Below, in pieces: positions 6,952 to 56,698 of a stretch of DNA of 64,000 bases. The stretch's first letter is position 1. Every line of letters starts with the position of its first letter. A model generated the notes under the pieces. It did not search any database. It was not told the origin of the DNA and saw only the letters and a program-made list of their open reading frames with translations. The DNA lies in NCBI RefSeq assembly GCF_050920415.1, contig NZ_CP169309.1, one strand, 5' to 3'. A program made the translations under genes and the position numbers. Source of the stretch: Escherichia coli. GTDB lineage: Bacteria; Pseudomonadota; Gammaproteobacteria; Enterobacterales; Enterobacteriaceae.

Positions 6952-7965
6952 TCATTCTGCAGACAACATCAAGCGAAGCCGACCACCGGTTCCCCATATT
7001 TGGCATTGCCAGGCATCGCATCGCTGGCTCAATTGATTCAAATAAGCGTTACCTAAAGTGCCTAACGGAACACCATTACTGATTTGCACCTGGTGTTCGC
7101 CAGTATTTAACGTCGCATTCAGACCCGCAGAAACCAGAATGAGATTTTTCAGTTCGCGATGATAATAGCCAACTAATAGCGGAAACTGCCCCGGCAGATT
7201 GGCCTGACGGAGTAAATGGTTTACCTGCTTCAATAACGCGCCCAACTCTGGCAACCGTTGATTTTGATGTGCAAGCTGTTCCTGTAATAATCCGTTAAAC
7301 AATGCGCGTAATAACAAGGCAGCAAGTACGCCATTATGTCCAGCTCTGGTGACATCAAGGCAATAAAATGCCAGATCGTTTTCCGAAAGTGCGGCAATAT
7401 CAAGCACCAGGCCGGGTTTGTCCGCGGCAACCAATTGACGATAATTAACCCGGCAATGGGAAATCACCTGCTGAACCGGCGGTTGCAATTCCTGTAATAA
7501 TTTCGCCGCTGCGGCAGGGTTATCAACCATTGCATCCCAGTCTCGAAAAAGCCTCTCCTCTTCCTCAACGCGGGAATTAAACATGCTGGGATAGAGACAG
7601 GCAAAAACCATCTCGCGCAAGCGATTCAGATCTTTAACTGGTTTCAGCAAAACATCTTCAACGCCCAGACGTAACGCTTTGGCAATATCTGCCATATTTT
7701 CAGTGGCAGATATCACCAGAACCGGTGTCTGGTCACCTCTGTTGCGTATATGTTCCAGCAGTTTAAGCCCGTTCATTCGTGGCATCGCGATATCACATAT
7801 CATCAGGTCTGGAGTGAAACCTCCCAGCAACTCAAGGGCATCCACCCCATCAGCCGCCAGTACCGTTGTCGCTCCCAATGAGGAAAACCACGAATCCAGA
7901 AGCGAGCGAAATACCTGCTCATCTTCAACAATGAGAATCTGTTTTCCGACCAATGGCTGCGTCAT
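6952..7965 (-). CDS. rssB: Response regulator RssB (RpoS proteolysis adaptor)
   Basis: 337-aa ORF MTQPLVGKQILIVEDEQVFRSLLDSWF...; CheY-like receiver followed by a PP2C-like domain. Confidence 0.95.
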   Translation of the reverse strand: MTQPLVGKQILIVEDEQVFRSLLDSWFSSLGATTVLAADGVDALELLGGFTPDLMICDIAMPRMNGLKLLEHIRNRGDQTPVLVISATENMADIAKALRLGVEDVLLKPVKDLNRLREMVFACLYPSMFNSRVEEEERLFRDWDAMVDNPAAAAKLLQELQPPVQQVISHCRVNYRQLVAADKPGLVLDIAALSENDLAFYCLDVTRAGHNGVLAALLLRALFNGLLQEQLAHQNQRLPELGALLKQVNHLLRQANLPGQFPLLVGYYHRELKNLILVSAGLNATLNTGEHQVQISNGVPLGTLGNAYLNQLSQRCDAWQCQIWGTGGRLRLMLSAE

Positions 7966-8056
7966 GTTCTCTCCCCTGACTGGCTTTACTCAATAGTGGC
8001 ATGCTATTGCCACCTGCGCCTGTCAGAATTAACTTAAGTGTAGATAAAAATTCTGG

Positions 8057-8962: not shown

Positions 8963-9074
8963 TATTCCCGCAAGATTCCCCTGGAATGCAATCGTAGCAA
9001 CATCGCTACTGCTCGGTTAACATAGTGCTACTCAGGCGGTTAATACGCCGTTATTGTTTCCAGGGAGATTATTT

Positions 9075-10585: not shown

Positions 10586-10670
<85 letters not shown>

Positions 10671-10704
10671 TCTCAAGCATTACATCAAAATTTGAATTAT
10701 CCCT

Positions 10705-10770
<66 letters not shown>

Positions 10771-10789
<19 letters not shown>

Positions 10790-11506
10790 TCACTTTCAAA
10801 AGTTCCTGAAATCCCCAACAAATCCACAATTAAATATTCTGCCCATGCGGGGAAGGATGAGAAGCTTCGACTAAGGTTCGACTCGAGCGCCAGCGAGAGA
10901 GCGTTGCCGCAGGCAACGACCCGTAGGGCGAAGCGCGCAGCGCTGAGTAATCCTTCCCCCACCACCATCACTTTCAAAAACCCCTGTATTCTCCAACGAA
11001 TCCGTAACTGAATATTCTGCCCATGCGGGGAAGGATGAGAAGCTTCGACTAAGGTTCGACTCGAGCGCCAGCGAGAGAGCGTTGCCGCAGGCAACGACCC
11101 GTAGGGCGAAGCGCGCAGCGCTGAGTAATCCTTCCCCCACCACCATCACTTTCAAAAACCCCTGTATTCTCCAACGAATCCGTAACTGAATATTCTGCCC
11201 ATGCGGGGAAGGATGAGAAGCTTCGACTAAGGTTCGACTCGAGCGCCAGCGAGAGAGCGTTGCCGCAGGCAACGACCCGTAGGGCGAAGCGCGCAGCGCT
11301 GAGTAATCCTTCCCCCACCACCATCACTTTCAAAAACCCCTGTATTCTCCAACGAATCCGTAACTGAATATTCTGCCCATGCGGGGAAGGATGAGAAGCT
11401 TTGACTAAGGTTCGACTCGAGCGCCAGCGAGAGAGCATTGCCGCAGGCAACGACCCGTAGGGCGAAGCGCGCAGCGCTGAGTAATCCTTCCCCCACCACC
11501 ATCACA
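10771..11506 (+). repeat. tyrT-operon 178-bp tandem repeats (4 full units starting at 10771, 10949, 11127, 11305, plus a 24-bp partial); rtT RNA/tpr region
   Basis: Each unit starts with the tRNA 3' motif AATCCTTCCCCCACCACCATCAC; exact 178-bp period read from the sequence; copies near-identical apart from the first unit and two substitutions in the fourth. Confidence 0.9.
11391..11480 (+). pseudogene. tpr: tpr (protamine-like peptide) frame interrupted by TAA at codon 6
   Basis: ATG AGA AGC TTT GAC TAA... encodes MRSFD-stop; the same TAA is present in all four repeat copies. Read-through would give the Arg-rich 29-aa peptide I recall for K-12 tpr (from memory). Confidence 0.35.
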
Positions 11507-12347: not shown

Positions 12348-13057
12348 TAGTGCTGTCCTCCGGTGGTGATATTCAGATATTGCGGCGCGACGGCACCGGC
12401 AAAGCGACGCTGATGAGCAGTGATTGCTGAATCACCGCAACCTTTGTCAGCAAAGAACTTAACCTGCTCTTCTTCCCAGACAGCATCCAGCGCCTGTGGC
12501 GTATCGTCGCGCGCTTCGTCGGCAATTTTTTCCGCCACTTTGTCGCTGTCGATAGCGGTATTCGCCAGTTTCAGCAGCAGATCAAACAGCACGGCATAAC
12601 GGCTTTCACGCTGTTGCAGACGCGCGCTCAGCAACGCCAGAATCGGCGCGATATCTTTCAAACCTTCCACAGCTTCGCTTTGCGGCAGCTGCGCCAGATA
12701 CTCCAGATACAGCGGCAGATGATCCGGTAATTCACGACTGTTCAATTGCAAACCGTGCTGCTCATACTGTGCCAACAAGTCAACCATTGCCTGGCCGCGA
12801 TCGCGGGATTCACCGTGAACATGCTCAAACAGCAGCAACGACGTGGCGCGACCACGGTCGAACAGTTCGCTGTACTGGGCCTGAGCATCCAGCGGATCCA
12901 GCGCTGTTAAATCGCGCAGGAAAATGCCCAGCGCATGGGCATCCTCTTTCGACAGATTTTCCGACGCAGCAATCGCCTCAAACATCTCTTGTTGATGCTG
13001 CCATAAGGCAGCATCCGGATATTCAAGGAGACGCGATACAATCACGAGTTCGATCAT
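12347..13057 (-). CDS. narJ: Nitrate reductase molybdenum cofactor assembly chaperone
   Basis: 236-aa [35 protein letters not shown]...; overlaps narI start and narH stop. Confidence 0.95.
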
Positions 13058-27614: not shown

Positions 27615-27681
27615 GAGAAAACCCCCGCACGTTGAGAGGTAAAACCTGACAACAGAACGGGGGCTAATCTTGAACCATCAA
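27615..27681 (-). ncRNA. rdl: Rdl-type antisense RNA (antitoxin), copy 1, approximate ends
   Basis: Minus-strand sequence ...AGATTAGCCCCCGTTCTGTTGTCAGGTTTTACCTCTCAACGTGCGGGGGTTTTCTC matches the Rdl RNA as I remember it; ends in its own hairpin plus U-run. Confidence 0.5.
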
Positions 27682-27729
27682 CAATTCAAGAATAGCCGCA
27701 AAATGTTGTCATTACAACAAGGCGGCTAT

Positions 27730-27837
27730 ATGACGCTCGCGCAGTTTGCCATGATTTTCTGGCACGACCTAGCGGCACCGATCCTGGCGGGGATTATTAC
27801 CGCAGTGATTGTCAGCTGGTGGCGTAACCGGAAGTAA
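27730..27837 (+). CDS. ldr: Ldr-family type I toxin peptide (35 aa)
   Basis: ATG...TAA encodes MTLAQFAMIFWHDLAAPILAGIITAVIVSWWRNRK, a single-TM peptide ending WWRNRK; near-identical to LdrA/B/C. Confidence 0.85.
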   Translation: MTLAQFAMIFWHDLAAPILAGIITAVIVSWWRNRK

Positions 27838-27885
27838 GGTGAAAACGGGCGTCAGGCTGCCGTGATGGCAATATGCGCCCGAAAC

Positions 27886-27919
27886 CGGCCGCAGGGGTAA
27901 CAGCCTGCGGCCCTTTTTG
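27886..27919 (+). terminator. Rho-independent terminator of ldr copy 1
   Basis: GGCCGCAGG-GGTAACAG-CCTGCGGCC stem-loop followed by TTTTT. Confidence 0.75.
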
Positions 27920-28150
27920 TCTTTATCTCTTCTGCAAGTAAATATTGGCAACCCGAGCTGGAAGCATCATCCAGAGCACTCATGAAACGACTGTAACAGC
28001 TGTTGAAAAACCGGAATGCACTCTTCATTGCAAACATTTCAGGGATGAAGTGAAGATGAATTGAGACGTAGTATCCACACCAAGCCGGAGTTATCCGGTG
28101 AGGCGCAATGTTGCGGGGGCTCTATCCCTGGTGGCATTGGTTGCTGGAAA

Positions 28151-28217
28151 GAGAAAACCCCCGCACGTTGAGAGGTACAACCTGACAACAGAACGGGGGC
28201 TAATCTTGAAACCAGAC
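28151..28217 (-). ncRNA. rdl: Rdl-type antisense RNA (antitoxin), copy 2
   Basis: Minus strand reads GTCTGGTTTCAAGATTAGCCCCCGTTCTGTTGTCAGGTTGTACCTCTCAACGTGCGGGGGTTTTCTC, with terminal hairpin and U-run. Confidence 0.55.
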
Positions 28218-41064: not shown

Positions 41065-41295
41065 TTACAGCTGATCAATATTGATCACGTTCCAATATGC
41101 TGGCGAGAAAAGGACTTGCCTGAAGAGCAATATCCAGCAGATAAAGCCCCCGAATAACGTGATTACGTGCGATCCTGGCAAGATGAAAATGATAACCAGT
41201 ATCACGATAATAACGATATGCCAGAAAATCCATTGATCAAAAATGAATATCGATGTTTTTTGCTTTTTCTTATTAGTAATGCAAAAATGGCTCAT
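41065..41295 (-). CDS. Hypothetical small membrane protein (76 aa), unannotated candidate
   Basis: ORF MSHFCITNKKKQKTSIFIFDQWIFWHIVIIVILVIIFILPGSHVITLFGGFICWILLF... has a Lys-rich N-terminus followed by one or two hydrophobic helices; lies in AT-rich DNA, so a chance ORF cannot be excluded. Confidence 0.25.
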   Translation of the reverse strand: MSHFCITNKKKQKTSIFIFDQWIFWHIVIIVILVIIFILPGSHVITLFGGFICWILLFRQVLFSPAYWNVINIDQL

Positions 41296-50240: not shown

Positions 50241-51938
50241 ATGAAAGCCACCGCCCCTCCTCGCCCGCAAAAAATAGCGTTAATTCCCGCCTGCGTTTTG
50301 TTGTGTTTCGCTGCGCTAGCGGTGCAGGCAGAAGAAACGCCAGTAACGCCACAGCCGCCTGATATTTTGTTAGGGCCGCTGTTTAACGATGTGCAAAACG
50401 CCAAACTTTTTCCGGACCAAAAGACCTTTGCTGATGCCGTGCCGAACAGCGATCCGCTAATGATCCTTGCAGATTATCGAATGCAGCAAAACCAGAGCGG
50501 CTTTGATCTGCGCCATTTCGTTAACGTCAATTTCACTCTGCCGAAAGAGGGAGAGAAATATGTTCCGCCAGAAGGGCAGTCGCTGCGCGAACATATTGAC
50601 GGACTTTGGCCTGTATTAACGCGTTCTACCGAAAACACCGAAAAATGGGATTCTCTGTTACCGCTGCCGGAACCTTATGTCGTGCCGGGCGGACGTTTTC
50701 GCGAGGTATATTACTGGGACAGTTACTTCACCATGTTAGGGCTTGCCGAAAGCGGTCACTGGGATAAAGTCGCGGATATGGTGGCCAATTTTGCTCATGA
50801 AATAGACACTTACGGGCATATTCCCAACGGCAACCGCAGTTACTATTTAAGCCGCTCGCAACCGCCATTCTTTGCCCTGATGGTAGAGTTACTGGCGCAG
50901 CATGAAGGCGATGCCGCGTTGAAGCAATACCTGCCGCAAATGCAAAAAGAATATGCTTACTGGATGGACGGTGTTGAAAACCTGCAAGCCGGACAACAGG
51001 AAAAACGCGTTGTAAAACTTCAGGATGGTACCCTTCTCAACCGCTACTGGGACGATCGCGATACGCCACGACCAGAGTCATGGGTGGAAGATATTGCCAC
51101 CGCCAAAAGCAACCCGAACCGGCCTGCCACTGAAATTTACCGCGACCTGCGCTCTGCCGCTGCGTCTGGCTGGGATTTCAGCTCGCGCTGGATGGACAAT
51201 CCGCAGCAGTTAAATACCTTACGCACCACCAGCATCGTACCGGTCGATCTGAACAGCCTGATGTTCAAAATGGAAAAAATCCTCGCCCGCGCCAGCAAAG
51301 CTGCCGGAGATAACGCGATGGCAAACCAGTACGAAACGCTGGCGAATGCCCGTCAAAAAGGGATCGAAAAATATCTGTGGAACGATCAACAAGGCTGGTA
51401 TGCCGATTACGATCTGAAAAGTCATAAAGTGCGCAATCAGTTAACCGCTGCCGCCCTGTTCCCGCTGTACGTCAATGCGGCAGCGAAAGATCGCGCCAAC
51501 AAAATGGCGACGGCGACGAAAACACATCTGCTGCAACCAGGCGGCCTGAACACCACGTCGGTGAAAAGTGGGCAACAATGGGATGCGCCAAACGGCTGGG
51601 CACCGTTGCAGTGGGTCGCGACAGAAGGATTACAAAACTACGGGCAAAAAGAGGTGGCGATGGACATTAGCTGGCACTTCCTTACCAATGTTCAGCACAC
51701 CTATGACCGGGAGAAAAAGCTGGTGGAAAAATATGATGTCAGCACCACCGGAACAGGGGGCGGCGGTGGCGAATATCCATTACAGGATGGCTTTGGCTGG
51801 ACCAATGGCGTGACGCTGAAAATGCTGGATTTGATCTGCCCGAAAGAGCAACCGTGTGACAATGTTCCGGCGACGCGTCCACTCAGTGAATCAACAACAC
51901 AGCCGCTAAAACAAAAAGAGGCGGAACCTACGCCTTAA
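50241..51938 (+). CDS. treA: Periplasmic trehalase
   Basis: 565 aa from ATG 50241 ([32 protein letters not shown]...); AAGGAGA SD 7 nt upstream; signal peptide; termini differ from the K-12 sequence I recall. Confidence 0.94.
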
Positions 51939-52070
51939 CTTTACTGTATATCGAGCAATGCCATTACGTGCATAAAATTGGCATTGCTCTTTCTTCATCA
52001 CGAAATACCACTCTTTCTACAGTCTATGCCTTTATTTTCTTTTATTAGGGAAGATTTTAATTTTATTTTA

Positions 52071-52090
52071 TCAACTTATTAATCATTACA
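52071..52090 (+). promoter_or_regulatory. Candidate Fur-box-like site (CTTATTAATCATTAC)
   Basis: Partial match to the GATAATGATAATCATTATC Fur consensus in the AT-rich region upstream of the uptake operon; judged by eye only. Confidence 0.25.
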
Positions 52091-52216
52091 CCTCTATTTA
52101 TATTTTTCCCCACTCCCCATTCTCCCTGACAATTTTCTTGTGGAACAAAGTGTTATTTAAGAAACAAGCAAATCATTCTGTCTCTTTAGACAAATTTTGA
52201 CATCAAACATGATCTT

Positions 52217-52250
52217 TTTCGCTATATATGTAAGTATATATCGGTTTTAA
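52217..52250 (+). promoter_or_regulatory. Candidate sigma70 promoter for the uptake operon (-35 TTGACA 52217-52222; A/T-rich -10 region about 52241-52249)
   Basis: Consensus TTGACA hexamer about 50 bp upstream of the ATG at 52268, followed at 17-19 bp by CTATAT/TATATG; CAGGA SD before the ATG. Confidence 0.4.
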
Positions 52251-52267
52251 TTATCAGGATATTACTT

Positions 52268-53290
52268 ATGTCACTAACCAGACGGAGGTTTACACAGATT
52301 CTTGCGTCGACATTGTTCCTGCATCATCTGCCGTCCTTTGCACAATCAGTCAAATTCTGGGCCTCACTGACGCTTCCCGAAGCCCAAAACATTACACGCA
52401 TCGTCAGCGCAGGCGCGCCCGCCGATTTACTATTGCTGGCTGTCGCGCCAGAAAAAATGGTCGGTTTTTCCTCTTTTGATTTTGCCCGTCAGGCATTAAT
52501 TCCATTGCCAGAGCACATTCGCCAGTTCCCCAGGCTGGGACGACTCGCCGGGCGCGCCAGCACACTCTCGCTGGAAGGGCTTATGGCATTACATCCCGAT
52601 TTGGTCGTTGATTGCGGCAATACGGATGAAACCTGGATCTCCCAGGCACGGCAGGTTAGCGAACAGACACAAATACCCTGGTTATTGCTTAACGGGAAAC
52701 TGGAACAATCAGCAGAACAGTTAACAACGCTTGGCAAAACGTTAGGCGAAGAGCACCGCGCCGCAGAACAAGCCAATCTCGCCAGCCGCTTCGTTGGTGA
52801 AGCTAAGGCATTCGCCACCTCACCCGCCGCTAACCTCAGCTTTTATGCTGCGCGCGGTCCTCGAGGGCTGGAAACGGGCTTACAGGGTTCGTTGCATACC
52901 GAGGCGGCGGAATTATTAGGTTTGCACAACGTCGCGCAAATAGCCGATCGCCACGGTCTGACACAGGTTTCCATGGAAAATCTCCTGCGCTGGCAGCCGG
53001 ATATTATTCTGGTTCAGGAGGCCGTTACTGCAGATTTTATTCGTCGTGATCCTCTCTGGCAGGGCGTGAAAGCGGTTGCGGAACAACGCATCTTATTTTT
53101 AAGTGGCCTGCCCTTTGGCTGGCTGGGTGCCCCGCCGGGAATCAACCGTCTTCTGGGATTACGCAGACTTCACGCCTGGCTGGATCCCGCCATCAATCGC
53201 CAGTTTAAAAGTGACATGCAGCATTACGCCCAACTGTTCTGGCATTGCCCATTAAGTGACGCTGACTATCAAAAATTGGTGGCGAGCTAA
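52268..53290 (+). CDS. Periplasmic substrate-binding protein (FecB/BtuF-like) with twin-arginine-type signal peptide
   Basis: 340-aa ORF MSLTRRRFTQILASTLFLHHLPSFAQS...; RRRF motif then hydrophobic region and AxA-like cleavage site; first gene of a coupled operon. Confidence 0.8.
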   Translation: MSLTRRRFTQILASTLFLHHLPSFAQSVKFWASLTLPEAQNITRIVSAGAPADLLLLAVAPEKMVGFSSFDFARQALIPLPEHIRQFPRLGRLAGRASTLSLEGLMALHPDLVVDCGNTDETWISQARQVSEQTQIPWLLLNGKLEQSAEQLTTLGKTLGEEHRAAEQANLASRFVGEAKAFATSPAANLSFYAARGPRGLETGLQGSLHTEAAELLGLHNVAQIADRHGLTQVSMENLLRWQPDIILVQEAVTADFIRRDPLWQGVKAVAEQRILFLSGLPFGWLGAPPGINRLLGLRRLHAWLDPAINRQFKSDMQHYAQLFWHCPLSDADYQKLVAS

Positions 53291-54270
53291 TGAGAACCGT
53301 AAACGGATGTATTTTGCTGCTGGCAGCTATCAGTATCACTTTTGCCGCCGTAAGTGGGGCTTATCATCTCGATATACAGCAACTGCTGGCGCTCATTCTG
53401 CGTCAAGAAAATGTTCCTGTGCAGGAACAAATTGTCTTCTGGCAAATCCGCGTGCCGCGTATTCTTGCTGCGCTGTTTCTGGGCGCGGCGCTGGCAGGGG
53501 CCGGAACCACCTATCAGGGAATGTTCCGTAATCCCTTAGTGTCACCGGATATTTTAGGCGTCTCCGCCGGTGCCGGACTTGGTGCCTGCGCGGCAATCCT
53601 GTGGGGATTATCCATTGTTTACATCCAGCTGTACGCATTTTGCGGCGGGCTGATGGTGGTCGCGGGCGTCTGGTTGATTACGCGTCGGGTGACCCGCCAC
53701 GATCCGATCTTAACCCTGGTGCTGGTAGGCATTGCGTTAGGAACGTTGTGCGGAGCGGGGATATCGCTAATAAAAACGCTGGCCGATCCTTACACCCAGT
53801 TACCGTCAATTACCTTCTGGTTGCTGGGGGGGCTGTCCACCGTGACCTTACGCGATCTCTGCTATGCTGCACCGATCATTCTCATAGGCTCCTTGCCCCT
53901 GTTTTTTCTCCGCTGGCGCATGAATTTACTCACGCTTTCCGACGACGAAGCCCATTCGCTGGGACTGAACGTGACACGTCTGCGCTTTGGATTGATTGTC
54001 TGCGCCACACTCATCACCGCCAGCACGGTAGCAATAGCGGGCATAATTGGTTGGGTCGGCCTGGTCGTTCCGCACATTGCCCGCTTGTTGACCGGTCATA
54101 ACCATCAGCAGCTATTGCCCATGGCAATGTGTACTGGCGCGATTCTGCTCCTGCTTACCGATACGCTGGCACGCAGCATTGGAACAACAGAAATCCCACT
54201 TGGCATTCTGACCGCTTTTGTTGGTGCACCGTTTTTCCTGTTTTTGTTGTTACGCGGAGGTCGCCAGTGA
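53290..54270 (+). CDS. ABC transporter permease (FecCD family)
   Basis: 326-aa polytopic ORF; start overlaps the upstream stop (TAATG); FecCD-like segment SPDILGVSAGAGLGA. Confidence 0.85.
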   Translation: MRTVNGCILLLAAISITFAAVSGAYHLDIQQLLALILRQENVPVQEQIVFWQIRVPRILAALFLGAALAGAGTTYQGMFRNPLVSPDILGVSAGAGLGACAAILWGLSIVYIQLYAFCGGLMVVAGVWLITRRVTRHDPILTLVLVGIALGTLCGAGISLIKTLADPYTQLPSITFWLLGGLSTVTLRDLCYAAPIILIGSLPLFFLRWRMNLLTLSDDEAHSLGLNVTRLRFGLIVCATLITASTVAIAGIIGWVGLVVPHIARLLTGHNHQQLLPMAMCTGAILLLLTDTLARSIGTTEIPLGILTAFVGAPFFLFLLLRGGRQ

Positions 54271-55025
54271 CTTTGCTTGCCGTCCGTCATGCGTCTCTGG
54301 GTTACTCCCGCCATCCGATGCTACGCGACGTGTCCTTCACCCTGTCGCAAGGAACAATTTGTTGTCTGTTAGGAGCCAATGGTTGCGGCAAAACCACACT
54401 CATGCGCTCCATTCTTGGCGTTATACCGTTATTAAAAGGCGAGATCTTACTGGATAGCCTCCCTGTGCAGACACTCAGCCATCGCCAGCGCGCGCAGGCT
54501 ATTGCCTGGGTGCCGCAGGCGCACGACGGCATTTTTGCTTTTAGTGTGCTGGATATGGTGTTGATGGGCCTGGCCCCCACCATAGGCGCTTTTTCCGTTC
54601 CCGGTAAGCAAGAACGCCTGAAAGCAACGGAGCAACTGGAAAAGCTGGGCATTTTGCATCTGGCGACACGACGCTGGAATACACTTAGCGGCGGTGAACG
54701 TCAGCTGGCTTTAATCGCCCGTGCACTCGTCCAGCAACCGCGCTTGTTATTACTGGATGAGCCTGCCTCCAGCCTCGATTTCGGTCATCAGATCCAACTA
54801 CTGGACACGCTGGCGCAGCTCAAAAATAACGGCATGACAATGCTAATGTCGACTCATCATCCGCTCCATGCCAACGCCATTGCCGACAGCATTATCCAGG
54901 TAGAGCCAGATGGACGAGTAACACAAGGCTTACCGACCGAACAGTTAACAACGAACAAACTGGCTGCCCTGTATCGGGTTTCTGCCGACCAGATTCATCA
55001 TCACCTCTCTGCAATTAGCCACTAA
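54267..55025 (+). CDS. ABC transporter ATP-binding protein (FecE-like)
   Basis: GTG start overlapping the permease stop (GTGA); Walker A GANGCGKTT, signature LSGGERQ, Walker B LLLLDEPASSLD; the track ORF extends upstream in the same frame. Confidence 0.85.
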   Translation: MTLLAVRHASLGYSRHPMLRDVSFTLSQGTICCLLGANGCGKTTLMRSILGVIPLLKGEILLDSLPVQTLSHRQRAQAIAWVPQAHDGIFAFSVLDMVLMGLAPTIGAFSVPGKQERLKATEQLEKLGILHLATRRWNTLSGGERQLALIARALVQQPRLLLLDEPASSLDFGHQIQLLDTLAQLKNNGMTMLMSTHHPLHANAIADSIIQVEPDGRVTQGLPTEQLTTNKLAALYRVSADQIHHHLSAISH

Positions 55026-55034
55026 GGAACAATC

Positions 55035-55847
55035 ATGCTCATTGATGATATTGATTTTGCGGACCTTTACCTGCAGCAACTCAAGCTGGCCCACCGCACA
55101 GAAAAAACGCCGGATCACTGGGATCAACGGGCGGAAAAAATGGCGGAAAATTGCGCCTCGCCTACGGACAGCTACCTGCAACAACTGACCGCTAAAATTG
55201 ATCTGCAAGGCGCGCAGACCTTATTCGATATGGGCTGCGGACCGGGTACCGTATCGCTGGCGCTGGCTGACAAACTCACGACGATTTATGGCATTGATTA
55301 CAGTCAGGGGATGCTGAAGGTTGCCGCCCGTCGCGCCGCCGCGCTAAAGGCAGACAATGTCCACTGGATCCAGCGCGCATGGGAAGAGGACTGGAGTGAC
55401 CTGCCACGCTGCGATATTGCCGTGGCTTCCCGCTCCACTCTGGTGGCTGATATGCGCCAGGCAATGAGCAAACTGAATAATCAGGCACGGCTTCGCGTCT
55501 ATACGACTCATCTGGTCAGCACCTCGTTCGTCTCTCCAGCCATTCAGCGGGCGGCTGGTCGGGAAGTGATCGAATTACCCAACTATATCTTTGCGCTCAA
55601 CGTCCTGTATCAGATGGGAATTTATGCTCACGTTGATTTTATCCGCGGACAAAATTGCCCACAGGATAACAGCACCTGGGAACGTTTTGAGCAGAACGTC
55701 AGCTGGAGTCTGGGCGCGCTTAACGACGATGAGCGTGAGCGGTTATATCGCTGGTATCAACAACAAGATGCTCGTGCCCTCGCCCCTGCCAGCCGCGACT
55801 GGGCGCTCATCTGGTGGGATAGCGTACCGCAAGAGGCACTGCGATGA
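55035..55847 (+). CDS. Class I SAM-dependent methyltransferase
   Basis: 270-aa ORF with SAM-binding motif I (LFDMGCGPGTVSLALA) and acidic motif II (IYGIDYS); AAGGA SD upstream. Confidence 0.75.
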   Translation: MLIDDIDFADLYLQQLKLAHRTEKTPDHWDQRAEKMAENCASPTDSYLQQLTAKIDLQGAQTLFDMGCGPGTVSLALADKLTTIYGIDYSQGMLKVAARRAAALKADNVHWIQRAWEEDWSDLPRCDIAVASRSTLVADMRQAMSKLNNQARLRVYTTHLVSTSFVSPAIQRAAGREVIELPNYIFALNVLYQMGIYAHVDFIRGQNCPQDNSTWERFEQNVSWSLGALNDDERERLYRWYQQQDARALAPASRDWALIWWDSVPQEALR

Positions 55848-56698
55848 TTTTCCTTTCTCAGGCACAAATCGATGCGTTACTGCTGGAAGATATCCAGGGC
55901 GGTGACCTGACCACGCGAGCATTAAATATTGGACACCAGCATGGCTATATAGAGTTTTTTCTCCGTCAGGGCGGCTGCGTCAGCGGCATTTCTGTCGCGT
56001 GTAAGATGTTAACTACGCTGGGATTAACTATTGATGACGCGGTCAGCGACGGTTCACAAGCGAACGCGGGTCAGCGGCTAATCCGTGCGCAAGGTAATGC
56101 CGCAGCACTTCATCAGGGATGGAAGGCAGTCCAGAATGTGCTGGAGTGGAGTTGCGGTGTTTCTGATTATCTCGCTCAAATGCTGGCGTTACTTCGTGAA
56201 CGTTACCCTGATGGCAATATCGCCTGCACCCGAAAAGCAATTCCGGGTACCCGCTTACTGGCCTCGCAGGCAATTCTGGCTGCCGGAGGACTGATTCATC
56301 GTGCCGGATGTGCGGAAACCATATTATTGTTTGCCAACCACCGCCATTTTCTTCATGACAATCAGGACTGGTCAGGCGCAATCAATCAGTTACGTCGCCA
56401 CGCACCCGAGAAGAAAATAGTTGTTGAAGCCGACACGCCGAAAGAGGCAATCGCCGCGTTACGCGCGCAACCAGACGTACTTCAGCTCGACAAATTTAGT
56501 CCGCAACAGGCAACTGAAATTGCGCAAATAGCACCGTCGCTGGCTCCCCACTGCACGCTGGCTCTGACCGGCGGAATTAATCTGACAACACTCAAAAATT
56601 ACCTCGACTGCGGCATTCGCCTTTTTATTACCTCCACGCCTTACTACGCGGCACCTGCTGACATTAAAGTCAGTCTGCAACCCGCAGCCTCTATTTAA
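55844..56698 (+). CDS. ModD-family protein (quinolinate/nicotinate-nucleotide pyrophosphorylase fold)
   Basis: 284-aa ORF MIFLSQAQIDALLLEDIQGGDLTTRAL... with TRKAIPGTR motif typical of the NadC/ModD family; ATG overlaps the methyltransferase stop (ATGA). Confidence 0.7.
   Translation: MIFLSQAQIDALLLEDIQGGDLTTRALNIGHQHGYIEFFLRQGGCVSGISVACKMLTTLGLTIDDAVSDGSQANAGQRLIRAQGNAAALHQGWKAVQNVLEWSCGVSDYLAQMLALLRERYPDGNIACTRKAIPGTRLLASQAILAAGGLIHRAGCAETILLFANHRHFLHDNQDWSGAINQLRRHAPEKKIVVEADTPKEAIAALRAQPDVLQLDKFSPQQATEIAQIAPSLAPHCTLALTGGINLTTLKNYLDCGIRLFITSTPYYAAPADIKVSLQPAASI

Follow-up and report, generated by a model that had tools for sequence, protein, structure and literature searches.

A probable twin-arginine signal on the class III substrate-binding protein of a strain-variable Escherichia coli island

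The stretch of Escherichia coli chromosome analysed here (the window, 64 kb of contig NZ_CP169309.1) carries adhE, nar genes, tyrTV-RtT, ldr/rdl, dhaKLM and treA, followed by ymgE, ycgR and emtA. Between treA and ymgE sits a six-gene island, which 2150 of 5426 complete E. coli genomes (about 40%) carry but K-12 does not. Its first gene encodes a periplasmic substrate-binding protein (SBP), which RefSeq labels 'iron ABC transporter substrate-binding protein' (ABC, ATP-binding cassette), and the likely export of this protein through twin-arginine translocation (Tat) is our subject. The open reading frame spans 52268-53290, and its ATG at 52268 is the most upstream possible start after the preceding stop, in agreement with RefSeq. 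The protein N-terminus reads MSLTRRRFTQILASTLFLHHLPSFAQS, and positions 52268-52360 encode MSLTRRRFTQILASTLFLHHLPSFAQSVKFW. The gene and its signal comprise the following features.

52268..53290, + strand: class III (cluster A) periplasmic SBP of 340 residues, WP_000060132.1 (PF01497, E 3e-17)
52268..52342, + strand: signal peptide, residues 1-25, MSLTRRRFTQILASTLFLHHLPSFA, then QS; predicted signal peptidase I cut after S23-F24-A25
52277..52291, + strand: twin-arginine motif T4-R5-R6-R7-F8, with R5 and R6 as the conserved pair (pattern match plus conservation)
52255..52258, + strand: Shine-Dalgarno sequence AGGA, 9 nucleotides before the SBP ATG (from the sequence)

Membership in class III is indicated by the PF01497 score (63 bits against a cutoff of 27.5) and by the predicted structure, an AlphaFold2 model with two lobes and a long helix at residues 162-183 (predicted local distance difference test score, pLDDT, 88). 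The top 50 Foldseek matches of this model are all class III SBPs, led by 4pag, which is the closest structure overall and is uncharacterised, and then by MolA (3psa). Over residues 1-30 the predicted structure reaches a pLDDT of only 50-65, rising above 90 afterwards. A lipoprotein reading of the E. coli protein was rejected, because its signal is devoid of a lipobox Cys.

The original prediction had pointed to an S/T-R-R-x-F motif ahead of the hydrophobic core of this N-terminus, and the motif is indeed there, with a strongly conserved pair. T4-R5-R6-R7-F8 fits it, R7 occupying the variable 'x' position, and RRRFT matches the default TatP pattern RR.[FGAVML][LITMVF] (PMC1182353). Because that pattern alone matches 7% of Gram-negative signals for the general secretory (Sec) pathway (PMC1182353), a lone match is weak evidence, and we read the significance of the motif as coming from its conservation rather than from the match alone. 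Homologues of 49-98% identity (Escherichia, Citrobacter, Salmonella, Klebsiella, Serratia, Yersinia and Shewanella) supplied 86 distinct N-termini, of which 83 retain the Arg pair (RR) and 80 the pattern [ST]RRx[FL]; two of the three exceptions to RR are starts mis-called at a Met after the motif, and the third is a KKR variant. In an alignment of 29 sequences, R5 and R6 are conserved to 97% and 100%, while mean conservation is 45% in the remaining signal-peptide columns and 62% at the 20 Arg positions of the mature SBP. The codons of the pair vary among genera (AGA CGG, CGT CGT, CGT CGC, CGC CGT and CGA CGT), implying that the constraint acts on the amino acids and not on DNA or RNA.

Might the arginines nevertheless belong to an ordinary Sec signal, supplying n-region charge only, with the SBP crossing the membrane unfolded through SecYEG or taking a mixed route? 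A charge-only role predicts free exchange of Lys and Arg and a shifting position, whereas the pair is fixed at one position in nearly all of these N-termini, preceded by S/T and with F/L two residues further on. The hydrophobic (h) region also speaks against an ordinary Sec signal. On the Kyte-Doolittle (KD) scale it peaks at 1.48 in a 10-residue and at 1.23 in a 12-residue window. The corresponding maxima are 1.81 +/- 0.32 and 1.68 for 25 Tat signals of E. coli (PMC7549933, table 2), and 2.58 +/- 0.35 and 2.38 for a Sec reference of 14 signals, two of them from the window. Over both lengths the SBP signal thus lies within or below the Tat reference range and well under the Sec range.

Several features weigh against Tat targeting, and some of them favour Sec directly. 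The best 8-residue window, at a KD value of 2.38, falls between the Tat mean of 2.03 and the Sec mean of 2.71, and the h-region, with its compact 8-residue core ILASTLFL, is without the usual richness in Gly and Ala. At 25 residues the signal is short and of Sec-like length, and it ends in a standard AxA-type site. Compared with the consensus S/T-R-R-x-F-L-K, the sequence T-R-R-R-F-T-Q fits at S/T, at both R and at F (x being free) and misfits at the last two positions, so that the motif closes with F-T-Q and not F-L-K. The c-region contains a His-His pair (H19-H20) and neither Lys nor Arg, K29 being residue 4 of the mature protein; Lys or Arg occurs in the c-region or early mature part in 15 of 25 RR-type and 5 of 13 Sec-type orthologues. 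The two Tat profile models, PF10518 and TIGR01409, fail to match the E. coli peptide, even when E values up to 10 are admitted. Finally, several native E. coli Tat signals are cited as also using Sec in reporter fusions (Tullman-Ercek 2007, cited in PMC8262268), which makes mixed routing of the SBP possible.

Of these points, the profile negative can be calibrated. Among nine accepted E. coli Tat signals, the TIGR01409 cutoff is reached by four (SufI, TorA, CueO and NapA) and that of PF10518 by two; FhuD, EfeO, YcbK and AmiC are missed by TIGR01409. Given this insensitivity, the negative is compatible with Tat and groups the SBP signal with the atypical, non-redox ones. TIGR01409 does weakly recognise 12 of 36 RR-type orthologue N-termini, and none of 14 Sec-type ones. 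Taken together, we regard a Sec or mixed route as unlikely, and consider it likely that the first 25 residues of the SBP constitute a working, if somewhat atypical, twin-arginine signal that targets the protein to Tat.

Cleavage is predicted by the -3/-1 rule to follow S23-F24-A25, and 82% of homologues have Ala in the column that aligns with A25. Since that rule is the sole basis for the predicted site and the core is short, one might imagine that the N-terminus stays uncleaved and serves as a signal anchor that holds the SBP in the inner membrane. However, positions -3/-1 keep small residues across homologues, a helix-breaking Pro sits at -4, a lipobox is missing, and a core of 8-11 residues is too short for a membrane span; we consider such an anchor exceedingly improbable.

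Further support comes from the orthologous family, which we scanned with one genome per species, reconstructing the N-termini at 71 genomic loci. RR-type signals occur in Enterobacterales, most Shewanella, Stenotrophomonas, a metagenome-assembled genome (MAG) of Lysobacteraceae and Lampropedia (MQRRDFL...). Pasteurellaceae, Morganella and three alphaproteobacteria have Sec-type signals, with acidic residues coming next; those of Pasteurellaceae consist of MKKW, a strongly hydrophobic core and then the acidic residues. One deltaproteobacterial orthologue has a lipobox and hence a lipoprotein signal. The orthologues with Sec or lipoprotein signals share 38-50% identity with the E. coli SBP, and those with plain Sec signals show that the fold is exportable by Sec, a point in favour of a Sec route in E. 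coli. The lineages with K-K in place of the pair also have far more hydrophobic cores. The maximum KD value of a 10-mer is 1.94 +/- 0.32 for RR-type signals (n=38) and 2.57 +/- 0.39 for those with no RR in the first 14 residues (n=20), a difference for which the Mann-Whitney p-value of 1e-6 is descriptive only, because lineages are not statistically independent. In one member of this group of 20 (L063), RRRR occurs further along and the core is weak. The split mirrors the one seen between the Tat and Sec reference signals of E. coli, and RR signals that form a distinct functional class support real Tat targeting. At larger distances, the nearest complete representatives of 50%-identity clusters mostly show textbook motifs (MAINRRQFLK, MHNRRSFLK, MSMNRRSFLK, VKRRDFLG), and the more distant ones, many of them Gram-positive, are lipoproteins or Sec-type. 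Judging from these N-termini, the family has switched between Tat-type and Sec-type signals several times.

Some entries in the family call for separate comment. A contig of 2481 bp in a MAG labelled Collinsella sp. (Actinomycetota; L009, JAIJJM010000486.1) carries a version of the SBP gene that matches the E. coli one at 99% identity, together with the same ModE box, and is most likely a binning contaminant and not a case of gene transfer. Other orthologues are apparently truncated or disrupted (L027, L068, L078, L064 and P0077/P0078), including those of Citrobacter braakii ATCC 51113, which is without the N-terminus, Pectobacterium sp. PL152 and Pluralibacter; some E. coli/Shigella entries begin at MLNGKLEQ. 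The truncated orthologues suggest that the island is decaying in some lineages.

Is Tat export plausible for a protein of this class? The original prediction held that class III SBPs are normally Sec substrates, which is overstated, as two known members use Tat. The ferric hydroxamate SBP FhuD is listed as a Tat substrate in E. coli and Salmonella (PMC7549933 table 2, PMC8262268 table 1, PMC1182353), and TatP missed it although it was a known substrate (PMC1182353). Like the SBP studied here, it is a class III protein with a twin-arginine signal (MSGLPLISRRRLLTAMALSPLLWQMNTAQA) and no cofactor, and it is missed by both TIGR01409 and PF10518. Unlike the SBP, it belongs to another subfamily, is encoded in K-12, is under Fur and iron control and binds a siderophore, and it is absent from the sequence and fold matches found. 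The second example is FepB of Pseudomonas aeruginosa (PA4159), whose signal MPTRRRSALPLLALALSLFATLAAA was validated as Tat-competent by an amidase reporter (PMC6085387). It shares with the SBP membership in class III, a signal of 25 residues and a T-R-R-R start, and differs in belonging to an enterobactin system, in its more hydrophobic core and in not being orthologous. Tat-exported class III SBPs are thus already known, and by analogy the island protein would be a third example.

A close parallel to the signal itself is provided by SufI (FtsP), whose n-region is nearly identical (MSLSRRQFIQ in SufI, MSLTRRRFTQ in the SBP). The SufI signal has 27 residues (table 2, PMC7549933) and the SBP signal a predicted 25, both short for E. 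coli Tat signals. In contrast to that of SufI, which is Gly/Ala-rich and scores 24.8 bits with TIGR01409, the h-region of the SBP is neither Gly/Ala-rich nor recognised. A search of the literature and of cluster-member names found no paper or source name linking Tat to WP_000060132.1, and a TatP screen of the extraintestinal pathogenic E. coli strain PCN033, for which carriage of the island is not established, listed 25 substrates without the SBP among them (PMC7549933).

Overall, the proposal of a twin-arginine-like signal on this protein has held up well: the peptide combines a conserved pair, a weak h-region, an SFA-Q cleavage site and relatives with RRxFLK motifs. Tat dependence and the cleavage site being predictions from sequence, we envision a scenario whereby the SBP folds in the cytoplasm, is recognised by TatBC via T-R-R-x-F, is moved in folded form over the inner membrane by TatA, and is released by signal peptidase I after S-F-A25, without any cofactor taking part in its export. 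Such routing probably reflects fast or obligatory cytoplasmic folding and, by analogy with FhuD and P. aeruginosa FepB, would be a lineage-specific property of this SBP clade.

To ask what the exported protein might bind, the remainder of the island and the region upstream of it have to be considered.

52220..52243, no strand assigned: candidate ModE operator (Mo-box), CGCTATATA-TGTAAG-TATATATCG, ending 24 nucleotides before the SBP start codon
52197..52202, + strand: TTGACA, a perfect -35-like hexamer, 17 nucleotides upstream of the ModE box (from the sequence)
53290..54270, + strand: FecCD/BtuC-type (type II importer) permease (PF01032, E 3e-89; top NCBIfam match BtuC, below cutoff)
54267..55025, + strand: ABC ATPase (PF00005; start per RefSeq)
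55035..55847, + strand: class I S-adenosylmethionine-dependent methyltransferase, predicted cytoplasmic (domain profile matches)
55844..56698, + strand: ModD, quinolinate-phosphoribosyltransferase-like (TIGR01334, 502 bits against a cutoff of 179)
56724..58694, + strand: TonB-dependent outer-membrane receptor (plug and beta-barrel domains; start per RefSeq)

The longest open reading frame of the ATPase begins with GTG at 54129, which would give an overlap of 142 nucleotides with the permease gene; we adopted the RefSeq start at 54267, where the overlap shrinks to 4 nucleotides, typical of translational coupling. The receptor carries an ordinary Sec signal, MRLKKRYLCTVLSLAFTQQAVA. In the proposed mechanism, the periplasmic SBP takes its ligand from this receptor and passes it to the type II ABC permease and its ATPase.

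Tat is the export pathway for holo-proteins, and the operon holds two cytoplasmic enzymes, the methyltransferase and ModD. Conceivably, then, the SBP might bind a ligand or cofactor in the cytoplasm, perhaps a ligand made by these two enzymes, and be exported loaded. The original prediction had in the same vein taken Tat export to suggest that folding, or binding of a cofactor or ligand, precedes export; the inference of cytoplasmic binding is unsupported here. Orthologues with Sec or lipoprotein signals reside in cassettes without the methyltransferase, some of them with ModD, whereas Shewanella retains the Arg pair though it is without ModD. Repeated moves of the mature fold to Sec argue against obligatory cytoplasmic loading, and the Sec- and lipoprotein-type orthologues imply that the mature domain has no intrinsic need of it. 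Moreover, the model is that of a plain two-lobe class III SBP without an additional cofactor domain, FhuD and FepB use Tat without a cofactor, and the pairing of a TonB-dependent receptor with a permease of importer type speaks for uptake and not for ligand export. We therefore hold export of a loaded SBP to be very improbable.

The region upstream of the SBP gene suggests what is taken up. The candidate ModE operator is a palindrome with zero mismatches to the core CGNTATATA-N6-TATATANCG (the E. coli consensus being ATCGNTATATA-N6-TATATANCGAT, as quoted in PMC545781), and it is the sole such site in the window even with 2 mismatches allowed, where 0.01 would be expected by chance. Its conservation extends across the family: a ModE box with 0-2 mismatches lies about 50 nucleotides upstream in nearly all orthologues from Enterobacterales and Shewanella, one with 2-3 mismatches about 100 nucleotides upstream in most of those from Pasteurellaceae, and one with 1 mismatch 282 nucleotides upstream in Affinibrenneria. 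In Shewanella fodinae, another perfect box precedes the receptor gene. Positions of boxes in individual orthologue loci include 8963-8986 and 12752-12775 (L002), about 8976-8999 (L003), 7951-7974 (L005) and 7725-7748 (L007). No box was found in alpha-, beta- and Xanthomonadales relatives. The TTGACA hexamer may be a promoter element, although a scan for the sigma-70 consensus found no complete promoter on the + strand, and the ModE box would cover the expected -10/+1 region, where a repressor would sit. We envision that ModE and molybdate repress the operon through 52220-52243. A Fur box with <= 3 mismatches was not found near the operon, the sole site in the window being at 41185, and iron regulation is therefore not supported. 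Rfam searches at E <= 1 detected no riboswitch or other RNA at 51800-52400. A scan of the whole window returned only two tRNA-Tyr genes followed by four RtT repeats (10586-11501) and two rdlD antitoxin RNAs of the ldr/rdl loci (27616-28217), all ordinary for this region.

The island cassette is conserved across genera, except that Shewanella is without ModD. In Serratia, Klebsiella indica and Affinibrenneria a MOSC/YiiM gene follows the receptor gene (L003 15556-16197, L006 14466-15110, L007 14436-15254), whereas the E. coli island has none. MOSC domains form a family with a link to the molybdenum cofactor. A related arrangement is known from Haemophilus influenzae, where MolBC-A (HI1470-72) is a type II importer whose SBP binds molybdate and tungstate, and modD (HI1473) adjoins (PMC3928620, PMC4031551). 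In gene content the two systems share a class III SBP, the permease and ATPase of a type II importer, and linkage to modD, while the E. coli island has a TonB-dependent receptor and a methyltransferase in addition. MolA (3psa) is also the best characterised fold match of the SBP (E 5e-15, TM 0.68), though a distant relative, with about 19% identity and a sequence match confined to residues 214-289; true orthologues of the E. coli SBP exist in Haemophilus and Aggregatibacter, separate from MolA.

We infer from these features repression by ModE, the nature of the ligand and the involvement of the methyltransferase and ModD, whose roles are likewise putative. Most likely, the island serves TonB-dependent uptake of molybdenum (Mo) or tungsten (W) species and is repressed by ModE, and repression through 52220-52243 would imply that the SBP ligand, too, is most likely such a species and not iron. 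Members of the SBP cluster are named only generically, as 'iron' or 'ABC transporter', and the 'iron' annotation of this operon is probably wrong: Mo or W is indicated instead by ModD, by conservation of the ModE operator, by the resemblance of the fold to MolA and, in some genera, by the MOSC neighbour. Our literature search found no description of an island combining ModD, a TonB-dependent receptor, a methyltransferase and ModE control, but the ModE site may have been predicted earlier.

Could a feature of the mature protein be connected to its mode of export? The mature SBP contains a single cysteine, presumably in the cleft, Cys116 (C116, codon 52613-52615), in PDLVVDCGN at the end of an N-lobe strand. 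Its position presumably corresponds to that of Trp66 in BtuF, a class III SBP in which this residue contacts the ligand, and 4pag has a Trp aligned there. C116 occurs in 18 of 25 RR-type and in 0 of 13 Sec-type orthologues (Fisher p = 1.6e-5, uncorrected for phylogeny), the mature Sec-type proteins having no cysteine whatever, and the KKR variant of Shewanella morhuae has Ser at this position. The more distant RR-type relatives are without C116, so that it cannot be the original reason for Tat routing, and we rejected it as a cause across the family. One might speculate that folded export permits or protects an unpaired thiol in a periplasm containing DsbA. In its most elaborate form, the island would be a ModE-repressed, TonB-dependent Mo/W acquisition system, possibly for a chelate, whose SBP needs Tat because only when exported folded would it keep C116 reduced and out of reach of DsbA for its ligand; as a whole we think this combination rather improbable.

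If Tat targeting is correct, the SBP adds a strain-variable substrate to the E. coli Tat list, and the orthologous family becomes a natural system for asking what in the mature SBP favours Tat routing. The ModE operator and the repeated switching between Tat and Sec make the locus worth a modest experimental follow-up. TonB-dependent acquisition of Mo or W, if true, would be a kind of molybdenum uptake undescribed for E. coli, and such a route in enterobacteria would matter for metal homeostasis and for the fitness of pathogens in the gut.

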